Assembly (NCBI GenBank): GCA_963704935.1
Contig: CAVPIF010000003.1
Coordinates: forward strand, 1,128,004-1,192,003
DNA: 64,000 bases
Source of the DNA: an uncultured Chloroflexia bacterium
GTDB lineage: Bacteria > Chloroflexota > Limnocylindria > Limnocylindrales > CSP1-4
Reading direction: 5' to 3'
Shown: in pieces, positions 20,512 to 41,936 of the stretch
Numbering within the stretch: position 1 is the stretch's first letter
Layout: each line of letters starts with the position of its first letter
Program-made: the position numbers and the translations under genes
Notes under the pieces: generated by a model
Told to the model about the DNA's origin: nothing
Database searches by the model: none
Seen by the model: the letters and a program-made list of their open reading frames with translations, nothing else

Positions 20512-20649
20512 CATGGCCCAATCGGCCAAGTAGAAACCGCGGCGCCTCCCCGCCACCCTTGGAGGCATGACGGCGCGCTGGTCCGATCCACATCGACTCC
20601 TGGGTCCCCCCACCGGGTACGTCCGCGCCGTCAACCCCGCGGCGGCCCG
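20512..20649 (+). repeat. Junction block copy P_c preceding lysis cassette 1
   Basis: Same conserved block as 19575, 31710 and 41218. It contains a 28-codon ORF (ATG 20567, MTARWSDPHRLLGPPTGYVRAVNPAAAR) whose stop overlaps the next ATG. Confidence 0.75.
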
Positions 20650-20775
20650 ATGAGCGGGGTCGAGCTCGTCCTCGCCTTCCTCGCCGGGGTCGCCATGGGC
20701 ATCGCCCTCGACCGTTGGCTGCTCCCGTCCCTCGTTGATGCCTGGATCGACCGACTCCGCCGGCATGGGCAGTGA
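20650..20775 (+). CDS. Lysis cassette 1, gene 1: 41-aa single-TM peptide
   Basis: MSGVELVLAFLAGVAMGIALDRWLLPSLVDAWIDRLRRHGQ. Conserved at 31847 and 41355. It has one TM helix and a basic tail. Confidence 0.55.
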   Translation: MSGVELVLAFLAGVAMGIALDRWLLPSLVDAWIDRLRRHGQ

Positions 20776-20998
20776 CCGTGACGACGATGCGCCGGAGCAC
20801 CGCACCCGGGCCGACGACTACTCCTCGGCCCGGATCGGGGCCGCGGCTGCGCTCACGATCGTTCTCGTCCTGCTCCTCGTCCTCGACGTCGTCGTCCCCG
20901 GCTACGACGTTTCGCCCGGGACCCTCCTGCCTCTCCTGGGCGCGATCCTCGCGCTCCTGGGGCTCGAGGCCTCGGCCTTCTGGAGGGGCGTGAGATGA
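20765..20998 (+). CDS. Lysis cassette 1, gene 2: 77-aa two-TM holin-like protein
   Basis: Charged N-terminus, then two TM helices (IGAAAALTIVLVLLLVLDVVV; LLPLLGAILALLGLEA). Conserved in all three cassettes. Its stop overlaps the amidase start (ATGA). Confidence 0.6.
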   Translation: MGSDRDDDAPEHRTRADDYSSARIGAAAALTIVLVLLLVLDVVVPGYDVSPGTLLPLLGAILALLGLEASAFWRGVR

Positions 20999-21723
20999 CG
21001 ACGGTCACGGCCCTCCTGACCAACAAGGCCTACGGCTACCCGACGCGGGGGGCTCGGCGGCGCCGGAAGCCGTCGATCCTCGCCTGCCTCCACCAGACTG
21101 CCAACGCCAAGGCGACCGCGATGCAGGAGCGCGCCTACGCCAACCGGGCCGGCTCCGCTGGACCCTCGGCCACGGCGTACATCGACCGCGACGGCACGAT
21201 CGTCCGGGCGATCGACCCGGCCAAGTACGCGGCCTGGAGCCAGGGCGACGTCGCGCACCCCAACACGAAGATCCCGACGATCGCCGCCGCGGTCGCCTCG
21301 GGGGTGAACATGAACGAGTGGGTCCACGAGTCGATCGAGTGCTCGGGGGCAGGGTCAGAGCCCTACTCCGACGCCCAGTTCGAGAGCGTCGCCCGGCTCG
21401 TCGTCGCGGCGCACAAGGCCACGGGTCTGCCGATCAACCGCAGCACCGTGGTCACCCACGCCGACATCAACAGCGTGAGCCGCCGCAGCGACCCCTGGCC
21501 GCCGACCACCCGCGAGGCGAGGGTCAAGCGGGTCATCGCCAGAGCGAACGCGATCCTGCGACCGCCGATCGTGACCGTCACCGTCAAGGCGGGCGGCAGC
21601 CTCTCCGCGATCGCCGCGGCGCACGGGCTGACCCTGGCGGCCCTCCTCGCCTTCCCGGAGAACGCCAAGTACCGCGCCAAGCCTGGGCTCATCCACCCGG
21701 GCGACGTCGTCCGCGTGAAGTAG
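20995..21723 (+). CDS. Lysis cassette 1, gene 3: N-acetylmuramoyl-L-alanine amidase (Amidase_2/PGRP-type) with C-terminal LysM domain (endolysin)
   Basis: LACLHQTAN..ANRAGSAGPSATAYIDRDGTIVRAIDP..AAWSQGDV..VVTHADI is an amidase_2 pattern. The C-terminal VTVKAGGSLSAIAAAHGLTLAALLAFPENAKYRAKPGLIHPGDVVRV is a LysM domain. Confidence 0.9.
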   Translation: MTTVTALLTNKAYGYPTRGARRRRKPSILACLHQTANAKATAMQERAYANRAGSAGPSATAYIDRDGTIVRAIDPAKYAAWSQGDVAHPNTKIPTIAAAVASGVNMNEWVHESIECSGAGSEPYSDAQFESVARLVVAAHKATGLPINRSTVVTHADINSVSRRSDPWPPTTREARVKRVIARANAILRPPIVTVTVKAGGSLSAIAAAHGLTLAALLAFPENAKYRAKPGLIHPGDVVRVK

Positions 21724-21734
21724 CCGGAGGAGCC

Positions 21735-21935
21735 ATGGACACCCAGCCCGGCAAGATCTGGGGTCGTGAACCGGCGATGGTCCTCGCCCTCGTCCAGGCG
21801 GTCATCGCCCTCGTGGTCGCGTTCGGCCTCAACCTCGCACCCGACCAGATCGGCGCGATCCTCGCGGTCACGGCGGTCATCCTCGGCCTCATCACGCGCA
21901 GCAGGGTGAGCCCGGCGTCGGCCACCACCGAATGA
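21735..21935 (+). CDS. Lysis cassette 1, gene 4: 66-aa two-TM protein (second holin-like)
   Basis: GGAGGA lies 4 nt upstream of the ATG. MVLALVQAVIALVVAFGLNL and IGAILAVTAVILGLI form two TM helices. Conserved at 32965. Confidence 0.6.
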   Translation: MDTQPGKIWGREPAMVLALVQAVIALVVAFGLNLAPDQIGAILAVTAVILGLITRSRVSPASATTE

Positions 21936-22180
21936 GGGACGGGTACCTGCGCGGCTCGCTCCCGCGGACGCCGACCGCCCGCCAGGTCGACGTCCTCGCT
22001 GCGTTCGTCGCCGCCGGGGGTTCCGTGGCGGATGCGGCGGCGCGTGTCGGCGTCCGGCCAAGCACCGCGAAGCGACACCTCGCCGACCTGCGGGCGCGCT
22101 CGGGCCTCACGACGGAGCAGCTGATCTACGCGGGACGGGCTGGCGGCTGGCTGGTCGTCCCGAGCTTGGAGCCCAGCTGA
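21932..22180 (+). CDS. Lysis cassette 1, gene 5: 82-aa LuxR/GerE-type HTH protein (cassette-type paralogue)
   Basis: TARQVDVLAAFVAAGGSVADAAARVGVRPSTAKRHLADLRARSGLTTEQLIY has a GerE helix-turn-helix layout. The start overlaps the previous stop (ATGA). Confidence 0.8.
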   Translation: MRDGYLRGSLPRTPTARQVDVLAAFVAAGGSVADAAARVGVRPSTAKRHLADLRARSGLTTEQLIYAGRAGGWLVVPSLEPS

Positions 22181-22291
22181 GCGAGGCGCTCCGGTCCATT
22201 GTCCAGCCGCGTTTACTCTCATTACTTGACTTCCAGGCCAGGGTCCTCTCAATGAGCTCGACCTAGATCCCTCGGCCTCGGGAGAGTGGTG

Positions 22292-22720
22292 CTAGCGGGC
22301 GGAGCCGCGCGTCTGCCTCCAGCGGAACCAACCTGCTGCCAGAAGAAGGACCGCCATCCCGGCAAAGCCCGGGATCTCCCTCTCCGGAGCACCGCCGAGG
22401 TCACGGCCGACGATGTGCGACACGGCGTGGAGCGCCGCCCCGACCCCGACCCCGACGAGCGCGACAGTCAGCCCGTCCGCGCGAACGGACACGCCTGCTA
22501 GAAGGAGCACCAATCCGAGCCCGATCTGGAACGCACCGATGTCCTGCACGAAGTGCTGGTTGTACGGCTCGAACGTGGCAAGCGCCTCGAAGAAGGAACG
22601 CGGGTCGACCATCGCCCACAGGCCGAGCGCGATTAAGCCGACACCGCCGACGATCGCGACGGCGCGGGGCATCCGGGTTCCCAGGGTCGATGAGTCCCCG
22701 TCGATCTCGGGTGTTGCCAT
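22292..22720 (-). CDS. Hypothetical four-TM membrane protein, divergent from PadR
   Basis: 142-aa ORF with four hydrophobic helices. It shares an operator-containing intergenic region with the PadR gene at 22824. Confidence 0.6.
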   Translation of the reverse strand: MATPEIDGDSSTLGTRMPRAVAIVGGVGLIALGLWAMVDPRSFFEALATFEPYNQHFVQDIGAFQIGLGLVLLLAGVSVRADGLTVALVGVGVGAALHAVSHIVGRDLGGAPEREIPGFAGMAVLLLAAGWFRWRQTRGSAR

Positions 22721-22772
22721 TGGATCAGGTCCTCCTGCGCTGGTCCTGGAACTTGACAGGCGCTGCGCCAGC

Positions 22773-22801
22773 GACTATATATCGAACCACGATATATCGT
22801 C
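22773..22801. promoter_or_regulatory. AT-rich inverted repeat between divergent genes (candidate PadR operator)
   Basis: GACTATATATCG-aacca-CGATATATCGTC, complementary at 11 of 12 positions, lies 22 nt upstream of the PadR ATG in an otherwise GC-rich context. Confidence 0.5.
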
Positions 22802-22823
22802 CATCGTAAGAAGGTCTACGTCC

Positions 22824-23147
22824 ATGGTCACCAGGATCCCCGAGCTCGGCCGGTTTGCCGAGCCAGCGCTCCTCATCCTCGTCAGCCTTTCGGACGGGCC
22901 GAAGCACGGCTACGCGATCATGTCCGACGTAGAGGCCGGCACCGGCCGGCCGATGGGACCCGGAACCCTGTACGCAGCGCTCGCCCGTCTCGAGGAGCGC
23001 GGAATGATCGTGGCTCTCGCACCCGTCGACCGCCGCCGGCCCTACCGGCTGACCGCGCCGGGCGCCACGATCCTGGCCGAGCAGCTCCGCGAGCTCTCCG
23101 AGTTCGCGCAGCTTGGCCTCCGCCGGCTCGGCCGGACGCCCGACTGA
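22824..23147 (+). CDS. PadR-family transcriptional regulator
   Basis: ALLILVSLSDGPKHGYAIMSDVE..GPGTLYAALARLEERGMIV..RRPYRLTAPG. Confidence 0.9.
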   Translation: MVTRIPELGRFAEPALLILVSLSDGPKHGYAIMSDVEAGTGRPMGPGTLYAALARLEERGMIVALAPVDRRRPYRLTAPGATILAEQLRELSEFAQLGLRRLGRTPD

Positions 23148-23153
23148 CCGGGG

Positions 23154-23900
23154 TTGCGTCCCTTGATCGCCCTCCTCCTTCGCCTCTATCCATCGCGCTG
23201 GCGGGCCCGCTACGGCGACGAGTTCGAGCAGGTCCTCGCGGATCGTCCGCTCGGGCCGTTCGACGTGGCCGACGTCCTCCTGGGCGCGATCGATGCCCAT
23301 CTTCACCTCGGCGGCCTCGGAGCCGCGTCTGAACACCGAAAGGGGTTCGCGATGTCGCTTCGTATCGGGGGTATCGCCGCGCTCTTCGGGGCGCCGATCT
23401 GGGTCGGCGGATGGGTAGTCGCCAGTGGCGTTGTCGGCGACGTCGACACGAGAACGGCGGCCGCAATCTTGGTTGCCGGATCTCTTGCACTGCTCGTGGC
23501 GCTCGTCGGTCTCAGTGCCTTCCAGGCGCGGGTCCAACCGGTCCTGTCATGGCTGGCATTCGCCTTCCCGGCGGTCGGCACGGTCGGATTGCTGGTCGGC
23601 GCCCTCGGCGTCGCCCTTGGACGCGACGAGTTCATGGATGCCTTCTACTTCGGGCTCGGGACCTTCTTCCTCGGCTCCCTGCTGTTCGCGATCGCCACCT
23701 ACCTCGCAGCCGTCCTGTCACGTCCTGCGGCCGTGTTGCTGGGCGCGGCGCCGGTCCTCGCGATCGCCGGGGGAGGTGGACAGGGGTTCGCAGAGGTCAT
23801 CACCGTGGCAGCCTTGGTCTGCTTCACACTCGGCTGGTGCGCGCTGGGTGTCCAGGCGATCCGGCTGGACCGACCGGCGAACGCTCCTCGACCCGCCTGA
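23154..23900 (+). CDS. PadR-associated polytopic membrane protein
   Basis: The N-terminus LLLRLYPSRWRARYGDEFEQVL is typical of membrane proteins encoded after PadR genes, followed by ~6 TM helices. Confidence 0.75.
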   Translation: MRPLIALLLRLYPSRWRARYGDEFEQVLADRPLGPFDVADVLLGAIDAHLHLGGLGAASEHRKGFAMSLRIGGIAALFGAPIWVGGWVVASGVVGDVDTRTAAAILVAGSLALLVALVGLSAFQARVQPVLSWLAFAFPAVGTVGLLVGALGVALGRDEFMDAFYFGLGTFFLGSLLFAIATYLAAVLSRPAAVLLGAAPVLAIAGGGGQGFAEVITVAALVCFTLGWCALGVQAIRLDRPANAPRPA

Positions 23901-24122
23901 AGAGCCTAGATCGGTGCGATCGTGGTCGGGCTCGCGGGCGGCGGCCTCGCCTTACTCGGGCGCTCGTCGCGCCTGCTGGTTCGCTCCTGGCGATAGGTTC
24001 CTTCCGTCATCCGCGGTCTGCTTGTCTGGGCTCGACTTCTCGATCGTGTTGATCCCCCTGAGCTTGATCTGGCTCGTCGTCGGGCGCCTGATGTTGCGCG
24101 GCGCACCCCGTCGCAGGCCGGC

Positions 24123-24668
24123 ATGATCGCGGCGGCGCGCATCGTCTGGCTTCTGACCGGTGGCGTCTGGGCGACGCACGCGCTCGTTGGATTCGCCGAG
24201 CCCGAGTACTGGAACCCGGTCACCACCCTCGACTTTGCCGCAGTCTGGCTGTATAGCGCCGGTTTCCTGACCCTGGCGCTCACGGTAACCTTGCTCGGGC
24301 GTCTCGTTCCAACCCGCTCGGTGCGACGGGCGGCGATCGTGATGGCAATCGCGGCGTTGGTGACCGGGGTCGCGAACGGCATCGAGGACGGGCTCGGCGT
24401 GAAGTCGGTGGGGACCGTGTATGTCATCGGCGCGCTGGCGCTCCTGGTCGGCACGCTCGCACTTGTCGTTGCGCTGGCGCGAGCCGGTCCTGCGCGGCTC
24501 GCGTGGATGGCGGGTGGCCTCGCCATCGGGCTCCTACTCGTCAGCATCGGGGGCGGCCTGGTCATCCTCGGCACGCTGGGCGCCCTCGCGTTGAGGCCGG
24601 CCTGGTTCCTGGTCGCCGATCCGGAGCCACCCACCCCGACAGCCCCCGCGCGAAGGAGCGTCGAGTGA
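24123..24668 (+). CDS. Hypothetical polytopic membrane protein
   Basis: 181-aa ORF with 5-6 hydrophobic helices. The ATG is preceded in frame by a stop at 23994. Confidence 0.6.
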   Translation: MIAAARIVWLLTGGVWATHALVGFAEPEYWNPVTTLDFAAVWLYSAGFLTLALTVTLLGRLVPTRSVRRAAIVMAIAALVTGVANGIEDGLGVKSVGTVYVIGALALLVGTLALVVALARAGPARLAWMAGGLAIGLLLVSIGGGLVILGTLGALALRPAWFLVADPEPPTPTAPARRSVE

Positions 24669-24929
24669 GGAGCGGAGAGCAGCGGCGCGACGGGAGGCCG
24701 TGCGTGGTGGGCTCCTTGACTCCCACCGGGCCGGCCACGGGTACCTACGCGGCGCCCTCGCCGCAGGCGGCACGCGCGCAGCTCGCCTCGAGCTGCCCTG
24801 CCGAGATCGACCACCTATCCACCCCCCGGGGCCCGTGCGGGTTCGGACCCGTGGCCCGCAGGCGTAGCACCGCAGGCGTAGCACCGCAGGCGAATAGACC
24901 GCGCCAACCACGCCCTCAACGATTTGCGG

Positions 24930-25373
24930 GTGAAGCTCTGCACGGTCTGCGGCGTCGTCACCAGCCGCCCTCGTAGCCGCTGTACCGAGCACGCCCGGCA
25001 GTCCAACCGCAGCCGACATAACGCGCTGTACTGCACGCGGGCCTGGCAGCGTCTCAGCGCCCGCGTGCTGCTGGCGTGGCGTGGTGAGCACGGCAATTGG
25101 TGCCCGGGCTATCAGCGTCCAGCCCACCGCGCTGCCGACCTCACCGTCGATCACGTCGTGCCGCTGGCCGCGGGCGGCGCGCCGTTCGACATCGGCAACA
25201 CCGCGGTGCTATGCCGCTCCTGCAACTCGACGAAGGGTGCGTCAGTCGACGCGGACCTGGGTGGGGTAGCCCACATGGCGACGCGGCTCAACGCTGACCG
25301 CGCCGCGCGACTGTGTGCACGCGGCCGGGTTTCGCGTTTTGTGGGGGGTTTTCGCCAGTGGGGTACTGCATGA
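24930..25373 (+). CDS. HNH endonuclease (phage-type), copy 1
   Basis: KLCTVCG..RCTEH..DLTVDHVVPLAAGGAPFDIGNTAVLCRSCNSTKG gives CxxC..H..DH..N..CxxCN. The GTG at 24930 aligns with the start of copy 2 at 36225. Confidence 0.85.
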   Translation: MKLCTVCGVVTSRPRSRCTEHARQSNRSRHNALYCTRAWQRLSARVLLAWRGEHGNWCPGYQRPAHRAADLTVDHVVPLAAGGAPFDIGNTAVLCRSCNSTKGASVDADLGGVAHMATRLNADRAARLCARGRVSRFVGGFRQWGTA

Positions 25374-25777
25374 GCGCTGACGCCGCCGAGGCATTGGCCG
25401 CCTCCGCGACGATGGCCCTCCGCGCGATCCTCGCACCGCTGCGCCATTGCCCGGCCTGCGGCGCCGAGCTCCCATATCTCGGCGGGCGGGGCAGACCGCG
25501 CCGGTGGTGCGACGCCCACCATCCGCGTCCCTGCGCGGCTTCGCCCGCGGGCGTCCCAGGGCTCCGGCGTGCCCGCGGCCACGCTCGCGAGGGCGTGCGC
25601 GCGGAGATCCCGCCCCGCGATCTCGCTGACTGTCCGCCCGTGGGCGCCCACGTCGGCCGACGTGGCGCAATGAACTCGAGGGTGGCATGGACGCGACCCG
25701 ACCCAGATAGTGGCCCGGGGCTGCCCTATGGCATGGGCCGCGCACTCCGTGCCGGGCCGACGATCCCCTCCTCGTAG
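25370..25777 (+). CDS. Possible small zinc-ribbon protein, copy 1 (doubtful)
   Basis: The ATG overlaps the HNH stop (ATGA). It contains HCPACGAELPYLGGRGRPRRWC. The downstream reading frame differs from copy 2 because of a 1-nt indel, and it overlaps the Fic 3' end. Confidence 0.3.
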   Translation: MSADAAEALAASATMALRAILAPLRHCPACGAELPYLGGRGRPRRWCDAHHPRPCAASPAGVPGLRRARGHAREGVRAEIPPRDLADCPPVGAHVGRRGAMNSRVAWTRPDPDSGPGLPYGMGRALRAGPTIPSS

Positions 25778-26937
25778 GCCCTGAGAAGGTCGAACAGCTC
25801 GGTCGCTGCGTACTGGCGGTCGTACGTGCCCTCGCTCAGCTGGCGGATGACCCCAGCCTCGGCCAGCGCCTTGAGCGCGGCGAGCGTCTGCTGCTGGCTG
25901 ACGCCGATCGCCGCGCGGGCGGTCGGCGCGGACAGCGCCGGCAGCGCGGGGAGCAGCGCGATGAGCTTGCTCGCCGCTGATCCAGCCCTTGGGCGGCCGG
26001 CGCGCTCACGCCACTCGCTCTGGAGCGCCGCCACCTGGTCCGCGAGCTCGATCGACGCGGCCGCCGCTCGCCCGGCTGCCTCGGAGAAGGAGCCGATCCA
26101 CGCGGCAACGCGCCCTTCGCGGAACGCCGTGAGCCCCTCGACGTAGGCGGTGGGCCGGGCCGCCAGGACGATGCTGACCGGCGGGACAAACCGGGCGGCG
26201 ACACCGCGGCGCCGCAGCACCACGTGGATGAGGGCCCGGCCGACGCGGCCGTTGCCGTCGATGAAGGGGTGGATGGTTTCGAACTGCGCGTGGGCGATGG
26301 CCGCCTGCGCCACCGCGGGCAGGTCGTCCCGGGCGACGAAGGCAGCGAGGTCCTCAAGCAGCGGCATGACGATGTCCTCGGGCGGCGGCACGAAGACCGC
26401 ATCGGACGGGTTCCCGAGCCGGCCACCGATCCAGTTCTGCTCCTCGCGCACTCGGCCGGGTCGCGCCCGCTCGTCGCCCGCCATGAGCACCGCGTGGATC
26501 GCCAGCAGGTCGGCGACGGTCACCGGCTCCGTGCGGTCCCCGATCGTGATCGCCTCCTCCATCGCGGACACGTTCGCCGCGACGATCCTGGCGCTGCCCC
26601 GTGCCGCCCGAGGGTCGATCAGCGCCCGGGCGAGGTTGAGCGAGGAGACGTCGTAGCCCTCGATCCGGGACGACGCCACGGCCTCCGATCGCAGGAGCAG
26701 CGGGCCGATCGCTTCGAGGCCGCCCACCGAGGCGCGCTCGTTGAGCGCCCGGATCGCCGCCTCCGCATCCGCCGACAGGTCGGCGACTTCGAACGGGACG
26801 ACGGGGCTGAGCGCGGCGATCTCGTCAGGGACGAATGCCTGGTACCGGAACGAGGCACGCGCCCGGCGTCCACCCACCGCGCCAGGGTCTCCTTCCCAAG
26901 TCCGCTCGACGGTCCTCGGCACACGGCCTCCTGTCAC
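25726..26937 (-). CDS. Fic-family protein (Fic_N, Fic core, C-terminal winged helix), copy 1
   Basis: 403-aa ORF with the canonical Fic motif HPFIDGNGRVGRAL and upstream SSRIEGY. The predicted protein is identical to copy 2 at 37017..38228. Confidence 0.95.
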   Translation of the reverse strand: MTGGRVPRTVERTWEGDPGAVGGRRARASFRYQAFVPDEIAALSPVVPFEVADLSADAEAAIRALNERASVGGLEAIGPLLLRSEAVASSRIEGYDVSSLNLARALIDPRAARGSARIVAANVSAMEEAITIGDRTEPVTVADLLAIHAVLMAGDERARPGRVREEQNWIGGRLGNPSDAVFVPPPEDIVMPLLEDLAAFVARDDLPAVAQAAIAHAQFETIHPFIDGNGRVGRALIHVVLRRRGVAARFVPPVSIVLAARPTAYVEGLTAFREGRVAAWIGSFSEAAGRAAAASIELADQVAALQSEWRERAGRPRAGSAASKLIALLPALPALSAPTARAAIGVSQQQTLAALKALAEAGVIRQLSEGTYDRQYAATELFDLLRAYEEGIVGPARSARPMP

Positions 26938-27076
26938 AACCCTTCAGTCTCTTTGCATAAATGAAGGAATAAGACGAGGCTGCACCCATAACCCTTCAAT
27001 GTCAACTGGAAATCCAAGGGAAGCGAGGGGCGCCAATGTCGCGACGCAGGTGTCGCCGATCTCGCAACTCAAGAAT

Positions 27077-27092
27077 TGGTCGGGGCGAGAGG
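27077..27092 (+). repeat. att-like exact copy of the 3'-terminal 16 nt of tRNA-Pro(CGG)
   Basis: TGGTCGGGGCGAGAGG, followed by GATAGCCCCGCCACCAACGACCTTCCGATCACGATGCGCC with patchy similarity to the adjoining tRNA sequence (CGACCT, CGATGCGC). The LuxR ATG is 81 nt downstream. Confidence 0.75.
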
Positions 27093-27172
27093 GATAGCCC
27101 CGCCACCAACGACCTTCCGATCACGATGCGCCTCTCCGAGCCGCCCGAGCCGTACGACTGGCTGCGGAGCGC

Positions 27173-27418: not shown

Positions 27419-27499
27419 TGCCTGTTGTGGGTCGGGGCGGCGATCGACACTCAGATAATCCGCCGGGACCGCCATCAGAACGCAGTGCATCCAGAGGGC

Positions 27500-34797: not shown

Positions 34798-34821
34798 GAG
34801 ATAGGTAGAGTGAACCGCGTC

Positions 34822-35466
34822 ATGTCCGCTGTCAAGCCCTCCCGCGCGCCCAAGCCCACCCGACGCGAACGCGCTCAGGCGACCAGGATCCGGATCACCA
34901 AGGTCGCCTACAGGCTGTTCAGCGAGCGCGGATACGCCGAGACAACGATGGCCGAGATCGCCGAGGCGGCCGGCGTCGCCGTCCAGACCGTCTACTTCAC
35001 GTTCCACACCAAGGGCGAGTTGCTCAGCCGTGCCTTCGACTTCGCCGTCCTGGGCGAGGATGGACCGCTTCCGCCGGAAGAGCAGGATTGGTACGCGCGG
35101 ATGACCGCCGAGCCCGACCTTGTCGTGGCGCTCCGCCACCTGGTCACCGGCGTTGGCACGATCAACGTTCGGGCGACGCCGCTCGACACCGTTGTTCGGG
35201 CGAGCGCCGAGAGTGATCCCGACACGGCGCGGGTCTGGGCATTCCACGAGCGGCTACGCGCTGACGCGCACCGGGCCATCCTCGAGATCCTCGTTGCAAA
35301 GGCGCCGCTCCGTGACGGCATGACACCGGAGCGCGCAACGCACCTGCTCCTGTTCTACCTCGGCTCCGATGCCTACCGGCCGCTCGTCCGTGACTTCGGC
35401 TGGACGCACGAGGAGTGGGTCGACTGGACCATCGCGACCATCGCCGACCAACTCTTCGCCAGCTGA
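34822..35466 (+). CDS. TetR-family transcriptional regulator
   Basis: TRIRITKVAYRLFSERGYAETTMAEIAEAAGVAVQTVYFTFHTKGELL. Confidence 0.9.
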   Translation: MSAVKPSRAPKPTRRERAQATRIRITKVAYRLFSERGYAETTMAEIAEAAGVAVQTVYFTFHTKGELLSRAFDFAVLGEDGPLPPEEQDWYARMTAEPDLVVALRHLVTGVGTINVRATPLDTVVRASAESDPDTARVWAFHERLRADAHRAILEILVAKAPLRDGMTPERATHLLLFYLGSDAYRPLVRDFGWTHEEWVDWTIATIADQLFAS

Positions 35467-35474
35467 ACGGGCCG

Positions 35475-36158
35475 ATGACCCTGACAGCGGTTCAGGCGCC
35501 GCCTCGACCGACACGCCCGAAGCTCGTCGTCCCGGGCGCCGTGGCTGGGGCAGTGGCGCCGCTCACGTTCGCCGCCGCCCACGCCCTCCTGATCAGCGAC
35601 ATCTGGTATTCGGCGGTGGGGATGATGATCGCCGGGGCAGCGTGTGGCGCCACGATCGGATGGTCCTACGGACGCCTGTTCGATCCATCGATCCGAACCT
35701 GGCTGGGCTACAACGCCAGCTACGTCATCGCGCTCGCGGTGCTCGCGTTGGCGTCGGTGGCAGCATTCGAGCCCAGGATGACCATGGCAGAGTTGCTCAC
35801 CACGGACGGCCCGCCGAGCGATCTCATTGGCGCTGCCTTGCCCATGACCATCCTGTTTACGCTCGGCGCCGCGGCGACCCTGAGCGTCCTGTTCGATCGG
35901 ACGCTGGCGGGGTTCGGCGCGATCTTCGTCACCTGCTCGGTGCTGGTCGCGCTCCTTGGGCTGAACGTCTCGGTCATCGGCCTGATCCAGATCCCGACGA
36001 ACTCGCTCTACCTGGTGGCCGAGCTGTTCGGCCTGATCGTCGTCCTAGCCGGGTCGTTCGCGGCGGTCGTCATCGCGCTCGCGTGGAAGCAGTTCGGCGC
36101 TCGCTCCGACGTGCCTGAGCGGCGCATGGACGATTGGTCGGAGGCCGGCCACTCGTAG
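35475..36158 (+). CDS. Hypothetical six-TM membrane protein (downstream of TetR)
   Basis: ATG at 35475 (MTLTAVQAPP..), followed by six hydrophobic helices. Confidence 0.7.
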   Translation: MTLTAVQAPPRPTRPKLVVPGAVAGAVAPLTFAAAHALLISDIWYSAVGMMIAGAACGATIGWSYGRLFDPSIRTWLGYNASYVIALAVLALASVAAFEPRMTMAELLTTDGPPSDLIGAALPMTILFTLGAAATLSVLFDRTLAGFGAIFVTCSVLVALLGLNVSVIGLIQIPTNSLYLVAELFGLIVVLAGSFAAVVIALAWKQFGARSDVPERRMDDWSEAGHS

Positions 36159-36224
36159 CTGGTCCCGCAGGCGTAGCACCGCAAGCGAATAGACCGCGCC
36201 CGCCTTCCAGCCGACGATTCGCGG

Positions 36225-36668
36225 GTGAAGCTGTGCACGGTCTGCGGTGTCGCCACCAGCCGCACTGGTAGCCGCTGCGCCGAGCACGCACGGCAGTCCA
36301 ACCGCAGCAGGCACAACGCCCTGTACAGCACGCGGGCATGGCAGCGTCTCAGCGCCCGCGTGCTGCTGGCGTGGCGTGGTGAGCACGGCAATTGGTGCCC
36401 GGGCTATCAGCGTCCAGCCCACCGCGCTGCCGACCTCACCGTCGACCACGTCGTGTCGCTCGCCGCTGGCGGTGCGCCGTTCGACATCGCCAACACCGCG
36501 GTGCTATGCCGCTCCTGCAACTCGACGAAGGGTGCGTCAGTCGACGCGGACCGGGGTGGGGTAACCCATATGGGGCCACGGCTGAACGCTGACCGCGCCG
36601 CGCGACCGTGTGCACGCGGCCGGGTTTCGCCCGTTATGGGGGGTTTTCGCCAGTGGGGTGGTGCATGA
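36225..36668 (+). CDS. HNH endonuclease (phage-type), copy 2
   Basis: Paralogue of 24930..25373 with the same CxxC/DH/N/CxxCN layout. By eye ~90 percent nucleotide identity. Confidence 0.85.
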   Translation: MKLCTVCGVATSRTGSRCAEHARQSNRSRHNALYSTRAWQRLSARVLLAWRGEHGNWCPGYQRPAHRAADLTVDHVVSLAAGGAPFDIANTAVLCRSCNSTKGASVDADRGGVTHMGPRLNADRAARPCARGRVSPVMGGFRQWGGA

Positions 36669-36964
36669 GCGCTGACGCCGAGGCTGTCGCTGCGTCGGCG
36701 ACGATCGCCCTCCGCGCGAGCCTCGCGCCGCCGCGCCACTGCCCGGCCTGCGGCGCCAAGCTCCCGTATCTCGGTGGGCGGGGCAGGCCGCGCCGGTGGT
36801 GCGACGCCCATCATCCGCGTCCCTCGCGGCTTCGACCGCGGGCGTCCCAGGGCTCCGGCGTGCCCGCGGCCACGCTCGCGAGGGCGTGCGCGCGGAGATC
36901 CCGCCCCGCGATCTCGCTGACTGTCCGCCCGTGGGCGCCCACGTCGGCCGACGTGGCGCAATGA
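36665..36964 (+). CDS. Possible small zinc-ribbon protein, copy 2 (doubtful)
   Basis: MSADAEAVAASATIALRASLAPPRHCPACGAKLPYLGGRGRPRRWC... The C-terminal frame differs from copy 1. Confidence 0.3.
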   Translation: MSADAEAVAASATIALRASLAPPRHCPACGAKLPYLGGRGRPRRWCDAHHPRPSRLRPRASQGSGVPAATLARACARRSRPAISLTVRPWAPTSADVAQ

Positions 36965-37016
36965 ACTCGAGGGTGGCATGGACGCGACCCGACCCAGATA
37001 GTGGCCCGGGGCTGCC

Positions 37017-38228
37017 CTATGGCATGGGCCGCGCACTCCGTGCCGGGCCGACGATCCCCTCCTCGTAGGCCCTGAGAAGGTCGAACAGCTCGGTCGCTGC
37101 GTACTGGCGGTCGTACGTGCCCTCGCTCAGCTGGCGGATGACCCCAGCCTCGGCCAGCGCCTTGAGCGCGGCGAGCGTCTGCTGCTGGCTGACGCCGATC
37201 GCCGCGCGGGCGGTCGGCGCGGACAGCGCCGGCAGCGCGGGGAGCAGCGCGATGAGCTTGCTCGCCGCTGATCCAGCCCTTGGGCGGCCGGCGCGCTCAC
37301 GCCACTCGCTCTGGAGCGCCGCCACCTGGTCCGCGAGCTCGATCGACGCGGCCGCCGCTCGCCCGGCTGCCTCGGAGAAGGAGCCGATCCACGCGGCAAC
37401 GCGCCCTTCGCGGAACGCCGTGAGCCCCTCGACGTAGGCGGTGGGCCGGGCCGCCAGGACGATGCTGACCGGCGGGACAAACCGGGCGGCGACACCGCGG
37501 CGCCGCAGCACCACGTGGATGAGGGCCCGGCCGACGCGGCCGTTGCCGTCGATGAAGGGGTGGATGGTTTCGAACTGCGCGTGGGCGATGGCCGCCTGCG
37601 CCACCGCGGGCAGGTCGTCCCGGGCGACGAAGGCAGCGAGGTCCTCAAGCAGCGGCATGACGATGTCCTCGGGCGGCGGCACGAAGACCGCATCGGACGG
37701 GTTCCCGAGCCGGCCACCGATCCAGTTCTGCTCCTCGCGCACTCGGCCGGGTCGCGCCCGCTCGTCGCCCGCCATGAGCACCGCGTGGATCGCCAGCAGG
37801 TCGGCGACGGTCACCGGCTCCGTGCGGTCCCCGATCGTGATCGCCTCCTCCATCGCGGACACGTTCGCCGCGACGATCCTGGCGCTGCCCCGTGCCGCCC
37901 GAGGGTCGATCAGCGCCCGGGCGAGGTTGAGCGAGGAGACGTCGTAGCCCTCGATCCGGGACGACGCCACGGCCTCCGATCGCAGGAGCAGCGGGCCGAT
38001 CGCTTCGAGGCCGCCCACCGAGGCGCGCTCGTTGAGCGCCCGGATCGCCGCCTCCGCATCCGCCGACAGGTCGGCGACTTCGAACGGGACGACGGGGCTG
38101 AGCGCGGCGATCTCGTCAGGGACGAATGCCTGGTACCGGAACGAGGCACGCGCCCGGCGTCCACCCACCGCGCCAGGGTCTCCTTCCCAAGTCCGCTCGA
38201 CGGTCCTCGGCACACGGCCTCCTGTCAC
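37017..38228 (-). CDS. Fic-family protein, copy 2 (identical to copy 1)
   Basis: The 403-aa translation is identical to 25726..26937, at an offset of 11291 nt. Confidence 0.95.
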   Translation of the reverse strand: MTGGRVPRTVERTWEGDPGAVGGRRARASFRYQAFVPDEIAALSPVVPFEVADLSADAEAAIRALNERASVGGLEAIGPLLLRSEAVASSRIEGYDVSSLNLARALIDPRAARGSARIVAANVSAMEEAITIGDRTEPVTVADLLAIHAVLMAGDERARPGRVREEQNWIGGRLGNPSDAVFVPPPEDIVMPLLEDLAAFVARDDLPAVAQAAIAHAQFETIHPFIDGNGRVGRALIHVVLRRRGVAARFVPPVSIVLAARPTAYVEGLTAFREGRVAAWIGSFSEAAGRAAAASIELADQVAALQSEWRERAGRPRAGSAASKLIALLPALPALSAPTARAAIGVSQQQTLAALKALAEAGVIRQLSEGTYDRQYAATELFDLLRAYEEGIVGPARSARPMP

Positions 38229-38367
38229 AACCCTTCAGTCTCTTTGCATAAATGAAGGAATAAGACGAGGCTGCACCCATAACCCTTCAATGTCAACTGG
38301 AAATCCAAGGGAAGCGAGGGGCGCCAATGTCGCGACGCAGGTGTCGCCGATCTCGCAACTCAAGAAT

Positions 38368-38383
38368 TGGTCGGGGCGAGAGG
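38368..38383 (+). repeat. att-like exact copy of the 3'-terminal 16 nt of tRNA-Pro(CGG)
   Basis: TGGTCGGGGCGAGAGG in the same context as 27077. Confidence 0.75.
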
Positions 38384-38463
38384 GATAGCCCCGCCACCAA
38401 CGACCTTCCCATCACGATGCGGCTCGCTGAGCCGTCAGAGCCGCTCGAGCTGGTCCGCAGCGC

Positions 38464-38712
38464 ATGACGCGACGGTCATCCCGCCACGCCGCCGAACTTG
38501 CCACCGACCGTGAGGTCGGGGTGGTCGCCGCCGTCATCGCGGCTGGCTCCGAGAAGGCGGCTGCTCACCGCCTGGGCCTGTCGCACTCGACCGTGAAGCA
38601 CCATCTGGCGAATGCGCGGTGCAAGGTGGGGGCGGAGACGACGGCGCAGTTGGTATGGATCCTCGGTCCGCGGCTGCCGCAGCCGGACGGCGCGGCACAA
38701 GCGGACGACTGA
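38464..38712 (+). CDS. Small LuxR/GerE-type HTH protein (copy L3)
   Basis: MTRRSSRHAAELATDREVGVVAAVIAAGSEKAAAHRLGLSHSTVKHHLANARCKVGAETTAQLVWILGPRLPQPDG. Confidence 0.85.
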   Translation: MTRRSSRHAAELATDREVGVVAAVIAAGSEKAAAHRLGLSHSTVKHHLANARCKVGAETTAQLVWILGPRLPQPDGAAQADD

Positions 38713-38793
38713 GACCGGCAGGACACGTGGACAGCTCTTGACCGAGCGGGCCGCACGGCACAGGATGATGGTCTGATCACATGGCAGGGGACA

Positions 38794-39006
38794 GTGCCGA
38801 TGACCGGGAACATCGCGGTAGCCGCCGTTTACATCGCCTTCGCAGTCGCGTGGGTCATCGGGGCTTGGCTGGTCGGCGTGACCGCCGGCAGGCGGGGATA
38901 CAGCCCGGTGGTGTGGGGCGTCTTCTCGCTCGTCGTGTCGCCCGTCGTCGGGGTGGTGCTGCTCGCCCTCGTCACGCCCAGGCGCGGGCCTCGGGCGGGA
39001 TCGTAA
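38794..39006 (+). CDS. Hypothetical small two-TM membrane protein
   Basis: 70-aa ORF ending in TAA, with IAVAAVYIAFAVAWVIGAWLVGV and VVWGVFSLVVSPVVGVVLLALV. Confidence 0.5.
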   Translation: MPMTGNIAVAAVYIAFAVAWVIGAWLVGVTAGRRGYSPVVWGVFSLVVSPVVGVVLLALVTPRRGPRAGS

Positions 39007-39060
39007 GGCGATCGGGCAGCCGACTGACCATCAGACGTCCCGTCGCCCCACACTTGGGGC

Positions 39061-39330
39061 ATGACGGCGAGCTGGTCCGATCCACACCATGCGTAGGCTC
39101 CCGGATCCCCCACCTGGTCAGAAAAGGCGGCGGCCCATCGGCTCGGCCTGTCGCAATCGACGGTCAAACACCATCTGGCGAATGCGCGATCGAAGGTCGG
39201 AGCGGTGACGACGGCGCAGCTGGTCTGGATCCTCGGCCCGCGGCTGCCTGAGCCCGAGGGTCTGGCCCAAACGGACGAGCAGCGGCTTGTGAGGCATACC
39301 CGGCGGGAATCTCGACACGGAACGCCTTGA
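39061..39330 (+). pseudogene. Degenerate small LuxR gene (F3) with junction-block-type 5' end and premature stop
   Basis: ATGACGGCGAGCTGGTCCGATCCACACCATGCGTAG (MTASWSDPHHA-stop), then in frame ..SEKAAAHRLGLSQSTVKHHLANARSKVGAVTTAQLVWILGPRLPEPEGLAQTDE.. with the normal stop replaced by CAG. Confidence 0.6.
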
Positions 39331-39340
39331 CGGGGACGCT

Positions 39341-39364
39341 GTCTCCGCACGACGATGCGGAGAC
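39341..39364 (+). terminator. Perfect 8-bp stem hairpin after the degenerate LuxR copy (possible intrinsic terminator, no U-tract)
   Basis: GTCTCCGC-acgacgat-GCGGAGAC. Confidence 0.35.
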
Positions 39365-39413
39365 GGGCCGTGGGGCAGCCGACCGCCGATGACCGAGAGA
39401 GGGGGGGACTTCG

Positions 39414-39953
39414 ATGAGCACCGACGGGATTGACACCCTGACCGACGGAGTGATCACGCTTCGACCGTGGCGGCACGATAACTGGCGGGCGGTCTTTCAT
39501 GCCTGCCAGGACGACCTGATTGCGCGCTTCACGCCGATTCCACTTCCCTACACGGAGGACTCGGCGCACGGCTTCATCTCGATGTGCGAGGACGCTTGGA
39601 CGACGGGCCGCGAGCATCCGTTCGCCATCGCCGACGCCGCCACCGACGCCGTGCTCGGCTCGATCACCCGGCACGCCCCGTGGGGCCACTCCGTCCAGTT
39701 CGGCTACTGGGTCGCGGCGGAGGCGCGGGGCCGGGGCGTCGCCACCCGCGCGCTCCGGCTGATCGCCGACTGGACGCTCGCCACCACGGACCTGGTCCGG
39801 CTCGACCTCTACACGCACCCGGAGAACCACGTCTCCGGCCGCGTGGCGCTGGGGGCCGGCTTCGCCCTCGAGGGCGTGCGGCGGGCGTGGGAACTCGACC
39901 GGGACGGCAACCCCGAGGACGCGATCTTCTACGTACTCGTCCGGGGCGCGTAG
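39414..39953 (+). CDS. GNAT-family N-acetyltransferase (RimJ/RimL-like)
   Basis: ITLRPWRHDNW..FGYWVAAEARGRGVATRALRLIADW..NHVSGRVALGAGFALEG. Confidence 0.9.
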   Translation: MSTDGIDTLTDGVITLRPWRHDNWRAVFHACQDDLIARFTPIPLPYTEDSAHGFISMCEDAWTTGREHPFAIADAATDAVLGSITRHAPWGHSVQFGYWVAAEARGRGVATRALRLIADWTLATTDLVRLDLYTHPENHVSGRVALGAGFALEGVRRAWELDRDGNPEDAIFYVLVRGA

Positions 39954-39993
39954 CGTGCGGCTCCTGCACGCGCACGCTGCGCGCGCTGAGCGC

Positions 39994-40239
39994 ATGACAC
40001 GACGGCCGTCCCGCCCCGCCGGATGCGCCACCGACCGCGAGCTCGCGGTGGTCGCCGCGGTCCTCGCCGCCGGATCCGAGAAGGCGGCCGCCCACCGCCT
40101 TGGCTTGGCGCACTCGACCGTCAGGCACCACTTGGCGAACGCCCGGTCGAAGGTGGGAGCGACGACCACGGCCCAGCTGGTCTGGATCCTGGCGCGGCGG
40201 CTGCCTGAGCCCGAGGCCGCGGTCCAAACGGAGGAGTAG
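39994..40239 (+). CDS. Small LuxR/GerE-type HTH protein (copy L4)
   Basis: MTRRPSRPAGCATDRELAVVAAVLAAGSEKAAAHRLGLAHSTVRHHLANARSKVGATTTAQLVWILARRLPEPEAAVQTEE. Confidence 0.85.
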   Translation: MTRRPSRPAGCATDRELAVVAAVLAAGSEKAAAHRLGLAHSTVRHHLANARSKVGATTTAQLVWILARRLPEPEAAVQTEE

Positions 40240-40268
40240 CGCCTACCCGCCGATGACGTTGCGAGCCC

Positions 40269-41108
40269 TCAGCCGCCCGCTGGCTTGATGGCCGTGGCGA
40301 TCGCAAGTAGCTGGTCGAGGGTCATGTCCGCCTCGTTGCCGACCAGCGCGACGCCATCCGGGCCGACCATCCACTGCAGCAGCAGCTCGCCCGACTCGGG
40401 CTCGCGCAGGAGCACGCCCGGGCTGCCGCCGATCTGGACGGTGCTCCGCTCCGGGCCGCCGCCGATCTGGGTCGCCGCGCCGAACGCCTGGTAGAGGTCG
40501 AGCTGGCCCCGGCCGCGGTTGCTACCAGTCACGTGCGAGCCGGCCGGGGCGTAGACGCGCACCCAAAGCGGGGGCTCGGCCGCCGGCTCGTCGCCCGACC
40601 ATTGCAGCTGCCACCCCGACGGCAGGACCTGCGGCTCCGCGAGGCCGGAAGGCGGCCTGACCCACAGGGTCCCGCCGGCGACGTCGTGGACCGTGGAGCC
40701 GGTGAACGGGGCCGGCAGAAGCAGGTGGAAGGTGTACCCGTGGCCGACGGCGGCGCAGGCCACGTTCGGCGGCGCCGTCGCCTGGTCGGGGTGCGGGACG
40801 AGCACCACCGCAACCTGGAGGTCGGGGCCTGCGGTTGCCACCCACGGCGCGTAGTCGGTCGAGCAGAAGTCCCCCGGCGTGTACGCGAGGCCGCCGGTGA
40901 AGCTGAGCGTCAGCGTCCGGCCGTCGGCGCTGATCGTCGCGTCGTCGACGCGGGTCTGCTGGTCGGCCGGTGGCTCCGGCGGGTAGTCGGGGCCGAAGGT
41001 CTGCTCGTAGGGCTTCGGCGACGACGGCGGCGCTCCAGGTCCCGCCGAGCATGCCGCGGCGACAACCGCCAGCACCACAACCGCCATCCACCGCGACAAC
41101 TCGGACAC
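40269..41108 (-). CDS. Hypothetical lipoprotein
   Basis: Signal peptide plus lipobox (VVLAVVAAACSAG). 279 aa. No family recognised. Confidence 0.7.
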   Translation of the reverse strand: MSELSRWMAVVVLAVVAAACSAGPGAPPSSPKPYEQTFGPDYPPEPPADQQTRVDDATISADGRTLTLSFTGGLAYTPGDFCSTDYAPWVATAGPDLQVAVVLVPHPDQATAPPNVACAAVGHGYTFHLLLPAPFTGSTVHDVAGGTLWVRPPSGLAEPQVLPSGWQLQWSGDEPAAEPPLWVRVYAPAGSHVTGSNRGRGQLDLYQAFGAATQIGGGPERSTVQIGGSPGVLLREPESGELLLQWMVGPDGVALVGNEADMTLDQLLAIATAIKPAGG

Positions 41109-41217
41109 CCCAATGCAGCGGGCCTCCCGCAGGCCTCCTCACAGGATGTCGGACGCGGACGGGAACGCGCAAGTTCCGTTTGACTCCATGGCTTCCGATC
41201 GAGCCCGGTCTGGAACC

Positions 41218-41354
41218 CATGGCCCAAACGGCCAACTAGAAACCGCGGCCCGGCGCCGCCACCCTTCCGTCATGACGGCGCGCTGGTCTGATCCACACCG
41301 ACTCCCGGGTCCCCCCGCCGGGTACGTCCGCGCCGTCAACGCCGCAGGTGCCCG
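41218..41354 (+). repeat. Junction block copy P_e preceding lysis cassette 3
   Basis: CATGGCCCAAACGGCCAACTAGAAACCGCGG..CATGACGGCGCGCTGGTCTGATCCACACCGACTCCCGGG... It is preceded by GAGCCCGGTCTGG, which resembles the LuxR 3' end. Confidence 0.75.
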
Positions 41355-41480
41355 GTGAGCGGGATCGAGCTGATCCTCGCCTTCCTCGCCGGCGTCGCCA
41401 TGGGGATCGCCCTCGACCGCTGGCTGCTGCCAACCCTCGTCGATGCCTGGATCGACCGACTGCGCCGGCATGGGCAATGA
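41355..41480 (+). CDS. Lysis cassette 3, gene 1: 41-aa single-TM peptide (GTG start)
   Basis: (M/V)SGIELILAFLAGVAMGIALDRWLLPTLVDAWIDRLRRHGQ. Confidence 0.5.
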   Translation: MSGIELILAFLAGVAMGIALDRWLLPTLVDAWIDRLRRHGQ

Positions 41481-41703
41481 GCATCGTGACCATGCAGCGG
41501 ACCACCGCACCCGGGCCGACGACTACTCCTCGGCCCGGATCGGGGCCGCGGCCGCACTCACGATCGTCCTGGTCGTGCTCCTCATCCTCGATGTCGTCGT
41601 CCCCGGCTACGACGTGTCGCCTGGGACCCTCCTCCCCCTTCTCGGCGCGATCCTCGCGCTCCTGGGGCTCGAGGCCTCGGCCTTCTGGCGGGGCGTGAGA
41701 TGA
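41470..41703 (+). CDS. Lysis cassette 3, gene 2: two-TM holin-like protein
   Basis: MGNEHRDHAADHRTRADDYSSARIGAAAALTIVLVVLLILDVVVPGYDVSPGTLLPLLGAILALLGLEASAFWRGVR. Confidence 0.55.
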   Translation: MGNEHRDHAADHRTRADDYSSARIGAAAALTIVLVVLLILDVVVPGYDVSPGTLLPLLGAILALLGLEASAFWRGVR

Positions 41704-41936
41704 CGACGGTCACGGCCCTCCTCACCAACAAGGCCTACGGCTACCCGACCCGGGGAGCCCGGCGGCGCCGGAAGCCGACGATCCTGGCTTGCCTGCACCA
41801 GACCGCCAACGCCAAGGCGACGGCCATCCAGGAGCGCGCCTACGCCAATCGGGCAGGCTCGCGTGGCCCCTCCTCTCGACATTGGCCATCGGCATTGGCG
41901 CCGGGCTCGGCCTTGTCCGTGGTCCGTCGGCAGTGA
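41700..41936 (+). pseudogene. Lysis cassette 3, gene 3: truncated amidase (first ~53 codons only)
   Basis: MTTVTALLTNKAYGYPTRGARRRRKPTILACLHQTANAKATAIQERAYANRAGS matches copy 1. Similarity is lost at ~41860 and a stop follows at 41936. Confidence 0.75.

Follow-up and report, generated by a model that had tools for sequence, protein, structure and literature searches.

Why should a bacterial chromosome carry three copies of a phage-type lysis cassette with hardly another recognizable phage gene around them? This question is raised by a stretch of 64,000 nucleotides from an uncultured Chloroflexia bacterium of soil (contig CAVPIF010000003.1, positions 1,128,004 to 1,192,003), here called the window, with position 1 as its first letter and a G+C content of about 70%. 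An earlier note on this DNA had described the cassettes and proposed that they were either the remnants of very small satellite-like elements or a domesticated autolysis function. Our answer, which we consider highly probable, is that three prophages with internal deletions stand in tandem at the 3' end of a tRNA-Pro(CGG) gene, filling the region 18376-43445, and that the lysis cassettes are the modules of these prophages. As part of the same reading, and with equal confidence, the parents are taken to be a family of temperate phages of roughly 36-42 kb from Candidatus (Ca.) Limnocylindria (Chloroflexota), with packaging genes of the HNH/terminase type and a serine integrase.

Lysis cassettes, att repeats and viral relatives

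The lysis cassette occurs three times on the plus strand of the window, twice complete (copies 1 and 2) and once cut within the amidase gene (copy 3). The triplicate described in the earlier note, with five open reading frames (ORFs) in each complete copy, was reproduced in its ORF coordinates, in its numbers of transmembrane (TM) segments and in all six overlaps of a start with the preceding stop (ATGA or GTGA at 20650, 20995, 21932, 31847, 32189 and 33147). Its extent had to be revised: the five genes stand, but a conserved leader of about 140 nt precedes them as the first part of the cassette (20510-20649, 31708-31846 and 41217-41354 in the three copies), and within it lies a sixth ORF of 28 codons. 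In copy 1 this leader ORF (20567-20653) is followed by p41 (20650-20775; 41 aa, a single TM segment, a candidate holin accessory or antiholin), p77 (20765-20998; 77 aa, two TM segments and a charged N-terminus, holin-like), the endolysin (20995-21723; an Amidase_2 catalytic domain and a C-terminal LysM), p66 (21735-21935; 66 aa, two TM segments) and, as the last gene, an 82-aa protein with a four-helix helix-turn-helix (HTH) fold of the LuxR/GerE type (21932-22180). Copy 2 (31708-33395) has the same series, i.e. the leader ORF (31764-31850), p41 (31847-31972), p77 (31962-32192), a 254-aa amidase allele (32189-32953), p66 (32965-33150) and the HTH gene (33147-33395). Copy 3 (41217-41876) consists of the leader ORF (41272-41358), p41 (41355-41480), p77 (41470-41703) and amidase codons 1-59 (41700-41876); homology to copy 1 stops at 41876, in codon 59, and the ORF continues to 41936. 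At the DNA level copy 1 is 77% identical to copy 2 and 89% to copy 3.

The cassette was connected to phages through its leader and through a nearby gene for an HNH endonuclease. An exact 22-nt core of the leader was found in two IMG/VR contigs, of which longer stretches were obtained via a large-terminase search, and the HNH gene found two more. The amidase itself gave nothing when searched against IMG/VR, and the link came only via the leader core and the HNH gene; the phage copies carry other lysins. One contig, L086 (35,987 bp), reads leader, p41, p77, a different Amidase_2 lysin of 335 aa, p66, HTH, a 258-aa ORF and HNH, followed by a small conserved protein, a ParB/methyltransferase (MTase), the small and large terminase subunits (TerS and TerL), a portal, a scaffold-like protein and a putative major capsid protein. 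The other, L083 (42,206 bp), follows the same order, except that different small membrane proteins and a Peptidase_C1+SH3 lysin separate the leader from the HTH. Pfam searches of the viral contigs identified the ATPase and nuclease domains of TerL, an SPP1-type portal, Terminase_4, N6_N4_Mtase and a Resolvase-type serine recombinase; the capsid protein, which has no Pfam match, is putative and named by gene position alone. In phage contigs the module is found with 80-95% protein identity. The cassette is the lysis module of a real, previously uncharacterized phage family, situated just upstream of the packaging genes.

Among cultured phages, tblastn of p66 and the amidase against 50,697 records gave no match, and the module is known from metagenomic viral contigs only. 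The nearest large terminases from cultured phages are those of the Streptomyces phages TG1, phiC31 and phiBT1, with about 32% identity over 92% of the length. A published study of Limnocylindria genomics makes no mention of phages.

In the window itself, the tRNA-Pro(CGG) gene (43446-43522, minus strand) is read as the site of integration, with its 3' end towards the array. The sequence of that end, TGGTCGGGGCGAGAGG, recurs in reverse complement as att copies of 16-19 nt at 18376-18394, 27077-27095 and 38368-38386 (plus strand); with the tRNA at 43446 this gives four matches, compared to about 0.06 expected. The three copies mark the left ends of the prophage units U1 (18376-27076), U2 (27077-38367) and U3 (38368-43445), and each lies about 95 nt upstream of a small gene with a GerE/LuxR-type HTH. 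This gene, the first inside attL, is found on the plus strand at 18472-18801 in U1, where it is a paralogue of the cassette HTH, at 27173-27418 in U2 and at 38464-38712 in U3, with a further copy at 39955-40239. The phage HNH endonuclease genes of U1 (24924-25373) and U2 (36225-36668), both on the plus strand, lie 2.7-2.9 kb downstream of cassettes 1 and 2 and match PHROG 144 at 9e-17. HNH genes of this type are usually found together with terminase genes, and in the intact relatives the gene directly precedes ParB/MTase, TerS and TerL. All three units retain the early/lysis arm, U1 and U2 through the HNH gene and U3 only into the amidase; judged by their gene content, they are defective remnants and not functional prophages. 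The earlier statement that each island unit holds one cassette stands, with the unit now read as one prophage.

How such a unit arises at its left end is indicated by L074, which belongs to the same contig as L083. Here a serine recombinase gene is directly followed by the small GerE gene, and the distance from the integrase end to the HNH gene is about 8.8 kb (L074/L083). A tRNA-Arg-like attP core was observed within the last ~30 codons of the recombinase gene (L074:9700-10000, minus strand). With the attP core inside the recombinase gene, integration must replace the C-terminal tail of the integrase, and the displaced tail stays before the GerE gene at attL, which resembles the integration-dependent regulation of some mycobacteriophages. 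By eye, frames of about 30 codons between each att core and GerE gene of the window (18376-18471, 27077-27172 and 38368-38463) resemble a recombinase C-terminus.

The left part of an intact phage of this family would accordingly consist of attL, the small GerE regulator, variable cargo, the lysis cassette (leader with leader ORF, p41, p77, endolysin, p66 and HTH) and again variable cargo, and the right part of HNH, ParB/MTase, TerS, TerL, portal, capsid and tail genes, with the serine integrase and attR/tRNA at the far end. This order is partly shown and partly inferred.

The leader and the proteins behind it

The leader is the single unusual item of the region, i.e. a near-invariant translated leader ahead of lysis genes. 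In an alignment of 64 copies the 5' half, a putative promoter/operator, is variable, with a TGGCC-N5-GGCCA dyad and a TAGAAACC motif; the other half, on the 3' side and about 75 nt long, is almost invariant and reads CATGACGGCGCGCTGGTCCGATCCACACCGACTCCCGGTTCCCCCCACCGGGTACGTCCGCGCCGTCAAC. The leader ORF encodes MTARWSDPHRLLGPPTGYVRAVNPAAAR in cassette 1, and its consensus peptide, MTARWSDPHRLPxPPTGYVRAVNxxxxR, is proline-rich. In 44 out of 60 copies the ATGA/GTGA at the start of p41 provides its stop codon, TGA; in cassette 1 this is the preceding stop noted earlier for the ATGA at 20650. The distance from the leader ATG to the start of p41 is 83 nt in 29 copies, 86, 89, 92 or 95 nt in 15, and 82, 84 or 85 nt in only five; since these spacings mostly differ by multiples of three, the indels preserve the frame of the leader ORF. 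In the phage L083 the ATGA coupling joins the leader ORF to another first gene, and a second leader copy precedes a further ORF. Conservation within the leader ORF is as high at third codon positions (0.97) as at first and second positions (0.96), compared to 0.81 at the third positions of p41. We conclude that the leader contains a translated ORF under an additional nucleic-acid constraint.

One candidate for such a constraint is a hairpin. The leader ORF of cassette 1 is situated within a 10-bp stem, TGACGGCGCG/CGCGCCGTCA, which takes in two bases of its start codon, and inner helices are also predicted. The stem is almost invariant over all copies, with four single changes compatible with G-U pairing and two that are disruptive. 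In one inner helix of 3 bp, a compensatory change from A-U to G-C was found only in the leader variant sharing a 9-12-nt loop insertion, in a set pre-filtered by a regular expression that excluded disruptive stem variants from this comparison. Single-sequence RNA folding predicts the 10-bp stem, but with an energy no better than that of shuffled sequences (z = 0.29). None of the Rfam covariance models matched the leader at the gathering threshold, and only chance-level matches appeared at E<=10; a scan of the leader for sigma-70 promoters found none, and an intrinsic terminator was likewise not found. That GAAAC-N17-CCTT in the leader might be a promoter resembling those of extracytoplasmic function sigma factors is no more than a guess of ours. 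An interpretation of the leader as an att or cos site was rejected, as some phages hold two copies 1.5 kb apart, each coupled to a downstream ORF. The leader may act as a switch for lysis timing or late expression. A more far-reaching proposal is that the leader is a new cis-regulatory lysis switch, in which ribosome stalling or hairpin opening times lysis, and that armed cassettes with this switch are kept in the prophage stumps of Limnocylindria for their use to the host or to resident phages; this combination strikes us as rather unlikely.

The proteins encoded behind the leader bear out the earlier description of a phage-type holin/endolysin cassette, by matches to holin and endolysin PHROGs and by the amidase fold. 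The amidase (242 aa in copy 1, 254 aa in copy 2) matches Pfam Amidase_2 at 4e-15 and LysM at 9e-14, as well as the endolysin PHROGs 833 and 9611, and is without an apparent signal peptide. An AlphaFold (AF2) model built on 13 homologues, with a mean confidence score (pLDDT) of 77, resembles AmpD and the phage Amidase_2 endolysins LysCS, PlyP100, LysGH15, PlyL and PlyG (E 3e-6 to 1e-3). The conserved residues H33, E115, H155 and D166 (Cys in copy 2) may, by analogy only, be zinc ligands or catalytic residues. When the amidase or its profile was compared to PDB sequences, LysM alone was matched, and an exact-sequence look-up of the amidase gave no record. Hydropathy assigns one TM segment to p41 and two each to p77 and p66, and p66 matches PHROG 9752, "holin", at 1.1e-11, placing a holin-class membrane protein beside the lysin. 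For p41 and p77 no significant family match was found in Pfam or PHROG; their size and topology are holin-like.

The cassette HTH had been called a LuxR/GerE-type protein, and this label is correct, because both a paralogue alignment and a four-helix model agree with it. The protein gave no Pfam GerE match at E<=0.1, only sub-threshold matches to other HTH families. It aligns end to end, with 42-44% identity, to the small-HTH family of the window (18472, 27173, 38464 and 39955), of which the member at 18472 matches Pfam GerE (PF00196) at 8.5e-6 (25.7 bits against a cut-off of 23.5). Its AF2 model (pLDDT 80) is a four-helix bundle, and the closest compact structures are GerE (1fse; TM-score 0.79, root-mean-square deviation 1.8 A), DegU, LiaR, NarL and VqmA.

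Within the cassette, the lysin is exchanged, and the leader, the small membrane genes and the HTH around it form a constant scaffold. Four lysins were observed, namely two Amidase_2+LysM alleles (20995-21723 and 32189-32953), the 335-aa Amidase_2 protein (L086:562-1569) and the Peptidase_C1+SH3 lysin (L083:3233-4168). The two alleles of the window share about 62-66% protein identity, depending on the alignment method, and are placed in a scaffold that is otherwise 83-90% identical. In some loci (L002, L045 and L083) a 114-aa protein takes the place of p41 and p77. The truncated amidases of eight independent loci, i.e. the window (41876) and L061, L062, L063, L066, L068, L070 and L072 (at about locus position 6150-6200 in these seven relatives), all end within codons 46-67, which points to the edge of the conserved N-terminal segment as a place of repeated breakage.

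From these parts, and from comparison of sequences, we infer a canonical holin-dependent lysis module. In an intact phage, late transcription would start in the leader, and the leader ORF would be translated and pass its ribosomes on to the first lysis gene through the ATGA coupling, with the conserved hairpin probably gating expression. The amidase would build up in the cytoplasm until p66, with p77 and/or p41 as co-holin or antiholin, permeabilizes the membrane at a set time; bound to peptidoglycan by its LysM domain, it would then cut the peptidoglycan. The HTH gene would be co-transcribed as the last of the series, and its product, made with the lysis proteins, may act on the leader dyad or on the GerE region. 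The small GerE gene inside attL, which no stump has lost, may encode a lysogeny regulator.

Distribution, decay and rival explanations

Cluster-level relatives number 379 for the amidase and more than 3000 for the HTH. A scan of species-representative genomes found the same block in 71 other genomic loci, far above chance, distributed over 54 metagenome-assembled genomes (MAGs). As many as 66 of the loci are labeled Chloroflexota, mostly Ca. Limnocylindrales or "uncultured Chloroflexia", and other labels occur at only three (Actinotalea, Gemmatimonadota and Actinomycetes); actinobacterial phages, proposed earlier as the place to search, are thus not where the related loci are found. Two or three loci occur in 14 assemblies, sometimes 8-10 kb apart on one contig. 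Coverage of the window by blastn against all loci is confined to three conserved, sharp-edged modules, i.e. the cassette (20510 to about 22185), the small GerE gene (about 18330-18710, and its paralogues) and the HNH gene (about 24870-25400 and 36165-36700), and the sequence between them is unrelated from genome to genome. Downstream of the cassette, a tRNA gene in matching relative orientation was found in 15 out of 60 other loci, and in at least five of these a copy of the flanking tRNA's own 3' end (Pro-CGG, Arg-CCG or Arg-TCG) lies about 100 nt upstream of a GerE gene.

The same loci also display the edges of what was lost. In 22 loci the GerE gene adjoins a serine-integrase fragment, and the points of 5' truncation vary; in ten loci what precedes the gene is a recombinase tail starting at codons 484-488, and in others it is a longer fragment with one of assorted 5' ends. 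At the other edge, ParB/MTase fragments of varied length follow the HNH gene in other genomes, and no MTase follows it in eight out of the ten genomic loci with at least 2 kb beyond HNH. Such varied endpoints point to independent deletions from full-size prophages. In a census of the window and 73 loci, 84 cassette instances were counted: all five genes were unbroken in 35, a gene was split in eight (by a frameshift, sequencing error or indel), at least one gene was missing in 32, and nine were cut by a contig end. This sample was picked through the amidase, so that it gives no measure of the retention of the cassette itself. The mixed census is as expected of decaying prophages and argues against strong selection at the level of the host.

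That the host might nevertheless keep such cassettes for its own ends was one of the earlier proposals, i.e. a domesticated, regulated module for autolysis or release, armed for the lysis of a subpopulation (with release of extracellular DNA, vesicles or products) or used in cell-wall turnover. All six ORFs, leader ORF included, are open in both cassettes 1 and 2, which appear intact, and lytic potential could persist if they are transcribed. For the small genes and the HTH, the ratio of nonsynonymous to synonymous substitution (dN/dS) between these copies is low, at 0.08-0.28 (0.17 for p41), with 0.63 for the amidase, and the left arm with its cassette is present in many genomes without late genes. 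A precedent also exists in the holin/endolysin/spanin operon of the E. coli prophage DLP12 (PMC7918800). The low dN/dS is, however, expected anyway, because the copies diverged as functional phage genes, and the module sits in phage contigs at 80-95% protein identity. Neither a conserved chromosomal position nor a conserved neighbor was found, as the flanks differ among the 71 loci and the arrays lie at different tRNA genes; no cargo or substrate gene is consistently linked, either for domestication in general or for a type 10 secretion locus; and next to the 35 intact instances stand the 32 with gene loss and the eight that are split. With no positive support emerging, we regard domestication as improbable. 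The notion of a vertically inherited housekeeping operon for a cell-wall hydrolase, merely phage-like in appearance, fits the occurrence of homologues in 54 assemblies of nearly all one order. It is at odds with several copies per genome, many of them truncated, with copies bounded by att repeats at tRNA genes, and with the module's presence in viral contigs together with terminase and capsid genes. Synteny of the amidase, which the earlier note had named as a sign of a housekeeping role, does not extend beyond the module, and we give this explanation next to no credence.

Helper-dependent satellites, finally, would be units of 9-11 kb (att, GerE, cargo, cassette, HTH, cargo and HNH) mobilized with the integrase and terminase of a helper. 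The units are indeed bounded by att copies, and their architecture recurs, with the HNH gene directly followed by the next unit's GerE gene in L003, L009 and L035; the packaging accessory HNH is retained, and three to four units would sum to roughly one phage genome length. Yet tblastn detected no integrase, terminase, portal or capsid gene in the units, Pfam searches of ten cargo ORFs gave no replication or capsid-redirection match, and the content between the modules is not conserved. The truncation points of integrase and MTase vary by locus, a signature of independent deletions from full phages, and the unit agrees in gene order, and roughly in size, with the left arm of an intact phage (about 8.8 kb in L074/L083). 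Satellites are in our view very improbable. The remnants envisaged in the earlier note are remnants, but of full-size phages (~36-42 kb), as indicated by the gene order of L086/L083 and the att sites, and not of very small satellite-like elements.

The reading as deleted prophages also has points that weigh against it. It leans on relatives and att repeats, and no unit here has structural genes or an integrase; tblastn detected neither TerS, TerL, portal, capsid, ParB/MTase nor recombinase/integrase in the window. The earlier remark that there are no other phage genes is nevertheless wrong: it holds for terminase, portal, capsid and integrase, but passes over the phage-type HNH genes and the tRNA-derived att repeats. 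A serine recombinase targeting a tRNA gene is unusual. Furthermore, the 2.5-kb segments 24870-27396 and 36165-38690 (HNH-Fic-att-GerE) are 95% identical, compared to 77% for the cassettes, so that three clean integrations alone are insufficient and duplication or gene conversion must also have taken place. That many genomes have retained the left arm and lost the late arm could also be due to selection and not to neutral decay. Simple duplication of a single unit in tandem was considered and rejected, as identity along the units ranges from 77% to 100%.

The remaining content of the array is cargo and debris. Between the modules, ten ORFs scanned against Pfam gave a methyltransferase, PadR, MerR/GyrI-like, TetR, GNAT and DUF matches, with four ORFs lacking a match; membrane proteins were also seen. 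A Fic-domain protein (minus strand, 25726-26937, duplicated at 37017-38228), part of the prophage cargo, fits the SoFic defence model of PADLOC at 2e-68; its two copies (403 aa) are 100% identical, each lying between the HNH gene and the next att site. PADLOC found no defence-system model fitting any cassette protein, only the neighboring Fic protein being matched, and an abortive-infection interpretation of the cassette was dropped. An orphan leader copy (19575-19707, plus strand) has no lysis genes behind it, a leader fragment lies at 39038-39119, and fragments of the small GerE gene were observed within and to the left of the array (11811-11890, 29317-29391, 30228-30353 and 39118-39279). 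These GerE and leader pieces are probably the footprints of further, older integrations, and the island may start near 11.8 kb.

Some observations concern the surroundings. A secreted protein of 391 aa, with internal repeats of about 47 aa that resemble Kelch repeats, is present in two copies that are 96% identical: one (42124-43299) adjoins the tRNA-Pro gene and the other (15926-17101) is 1.3 kb to the left of the first att copy. Behind this second copy comes a gene pair (17477-18138) resembling a VapBC toxin-antitoxin system. Far outside the array, a 248-nt direct repeat (4292-4539 and 9252-9497; 96% identical, 5 kb apart, no Rfam match) flanks a sensor-kinase/response-regulator region. At 58342-58784, three tandem repeats of ~58 aa (...CPK..VTREQMA.FL...), which resemble S-layer-homology domains, stand at the start of a large secreted protein; if they are such domains, they have a bearing on the envelope type that the lysis cassette must breach.

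With the array read as three deleted prophages, the apparent oddity of lysis cassettes without a phage is removed, and the cassettes are tied to a previously undescribed family of temperate phages from an uncultured class, Ca. Limnocylindria. Lysis modules in cryptic, tandem, tRNA-integrated prophages are a known kind of genomic relic; new is a first outline of the phages of Limnocylindria, i.e. a map with an att rule, a module order and slots in which lysins and cargo (SoFic, for example) are exchanged. In the annotation of these MAGs, prophage stumps can be recognized by three markers, namely the cassette, the small GerE gene and the HNH gene.

Comparison with known systems

Phage-inducible chromosomal islands and other satellites resemble the units in being small, att-bounded and phage-related, without structural genes and sometimes in tandem. 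They differ in possessing their own integrase, a replication module, a helper-sensing repressor and packaging redirection, none of which was seen in the units by tblastn or among the ten cargo ORFs scanned; the deletion endpoints also vary between loci. The closest cultured relatives by large terminase, although very distant, are phiC31, TG1 and phiBT1 (Lomovskayavirus), temperate phages of roughly 41 kb with cos ends and large serine integrases. The target of the phiC31 integrase is a protein-coding gene and not a tRNA gene, and the cassette was not found in these phages in the p66 and amidase searches, nor was the leader.

Comparable in its layout is the cassette of mycobacteriophage Ms6, with five lysis genes (gp1 chaperone, LysA, LysB, and the holin-like gp4 and gp5) expressed via a regulatory leader RNA (PMC6116114 and its reference 39); two-component holin systems are described both for Ms6 and for the cluster F1 mycobacteriophages (PMC6116114, PMC13056207). 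Both cassettes are compact, multi-gene, from temperate siphophages of Terrabacteria hosts, with a leader ahead of the first gene and more than one small holin-like protein, of two-TM and one-TM types, the combination of which would time lysis. The cassette described here is without LysB (a mycolyl esterase) or a gp1-type chaperone, has small TM genes on both sides of the lysin and a transcription factor at its end, and shows no detectable sequence relationship to that of Ms6.

For the fate of such a module in a decayed prophage, the lysis operon of the defective E. coli prophage DLP12 (essD-ybcS-rzpD/rzoD) is a close parallel, with a proposal of domestication and experimental evidence of host-level roles and regulation (PMC7918800). 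In both cases a complete lysis module survives in a prophage unable to make virions. The experimental evidence sets DLP12 apart from the family in the window, which has several copies per genome at different stages of decay.

Lastly, the lambda late region has the layout of a late promoter and leader, the S-R-Rz lysis genes, and cos with the terminase genes, without sequence homology to the cassette; in the prophage, the lysis genes come after the integrase end and before those for packaging and tail. Unlike lambda, the cassette has no spanin-like genes, three small membrane proteins in place of a single holin/antiholin gene, and a LuxR-type HTH gene; its leader has a translated 28-codon ORF and not a Q-utilization site with a terminator, and the integrase is a serine recombinase. 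The two are alike in a lysis cassette that has its own leader and directly precedes the packaging genes (here HNH, TerS and TerL), in an att-bounded prophage with the integrase at one end, and probably in the holin-dependent export of the endolysin.

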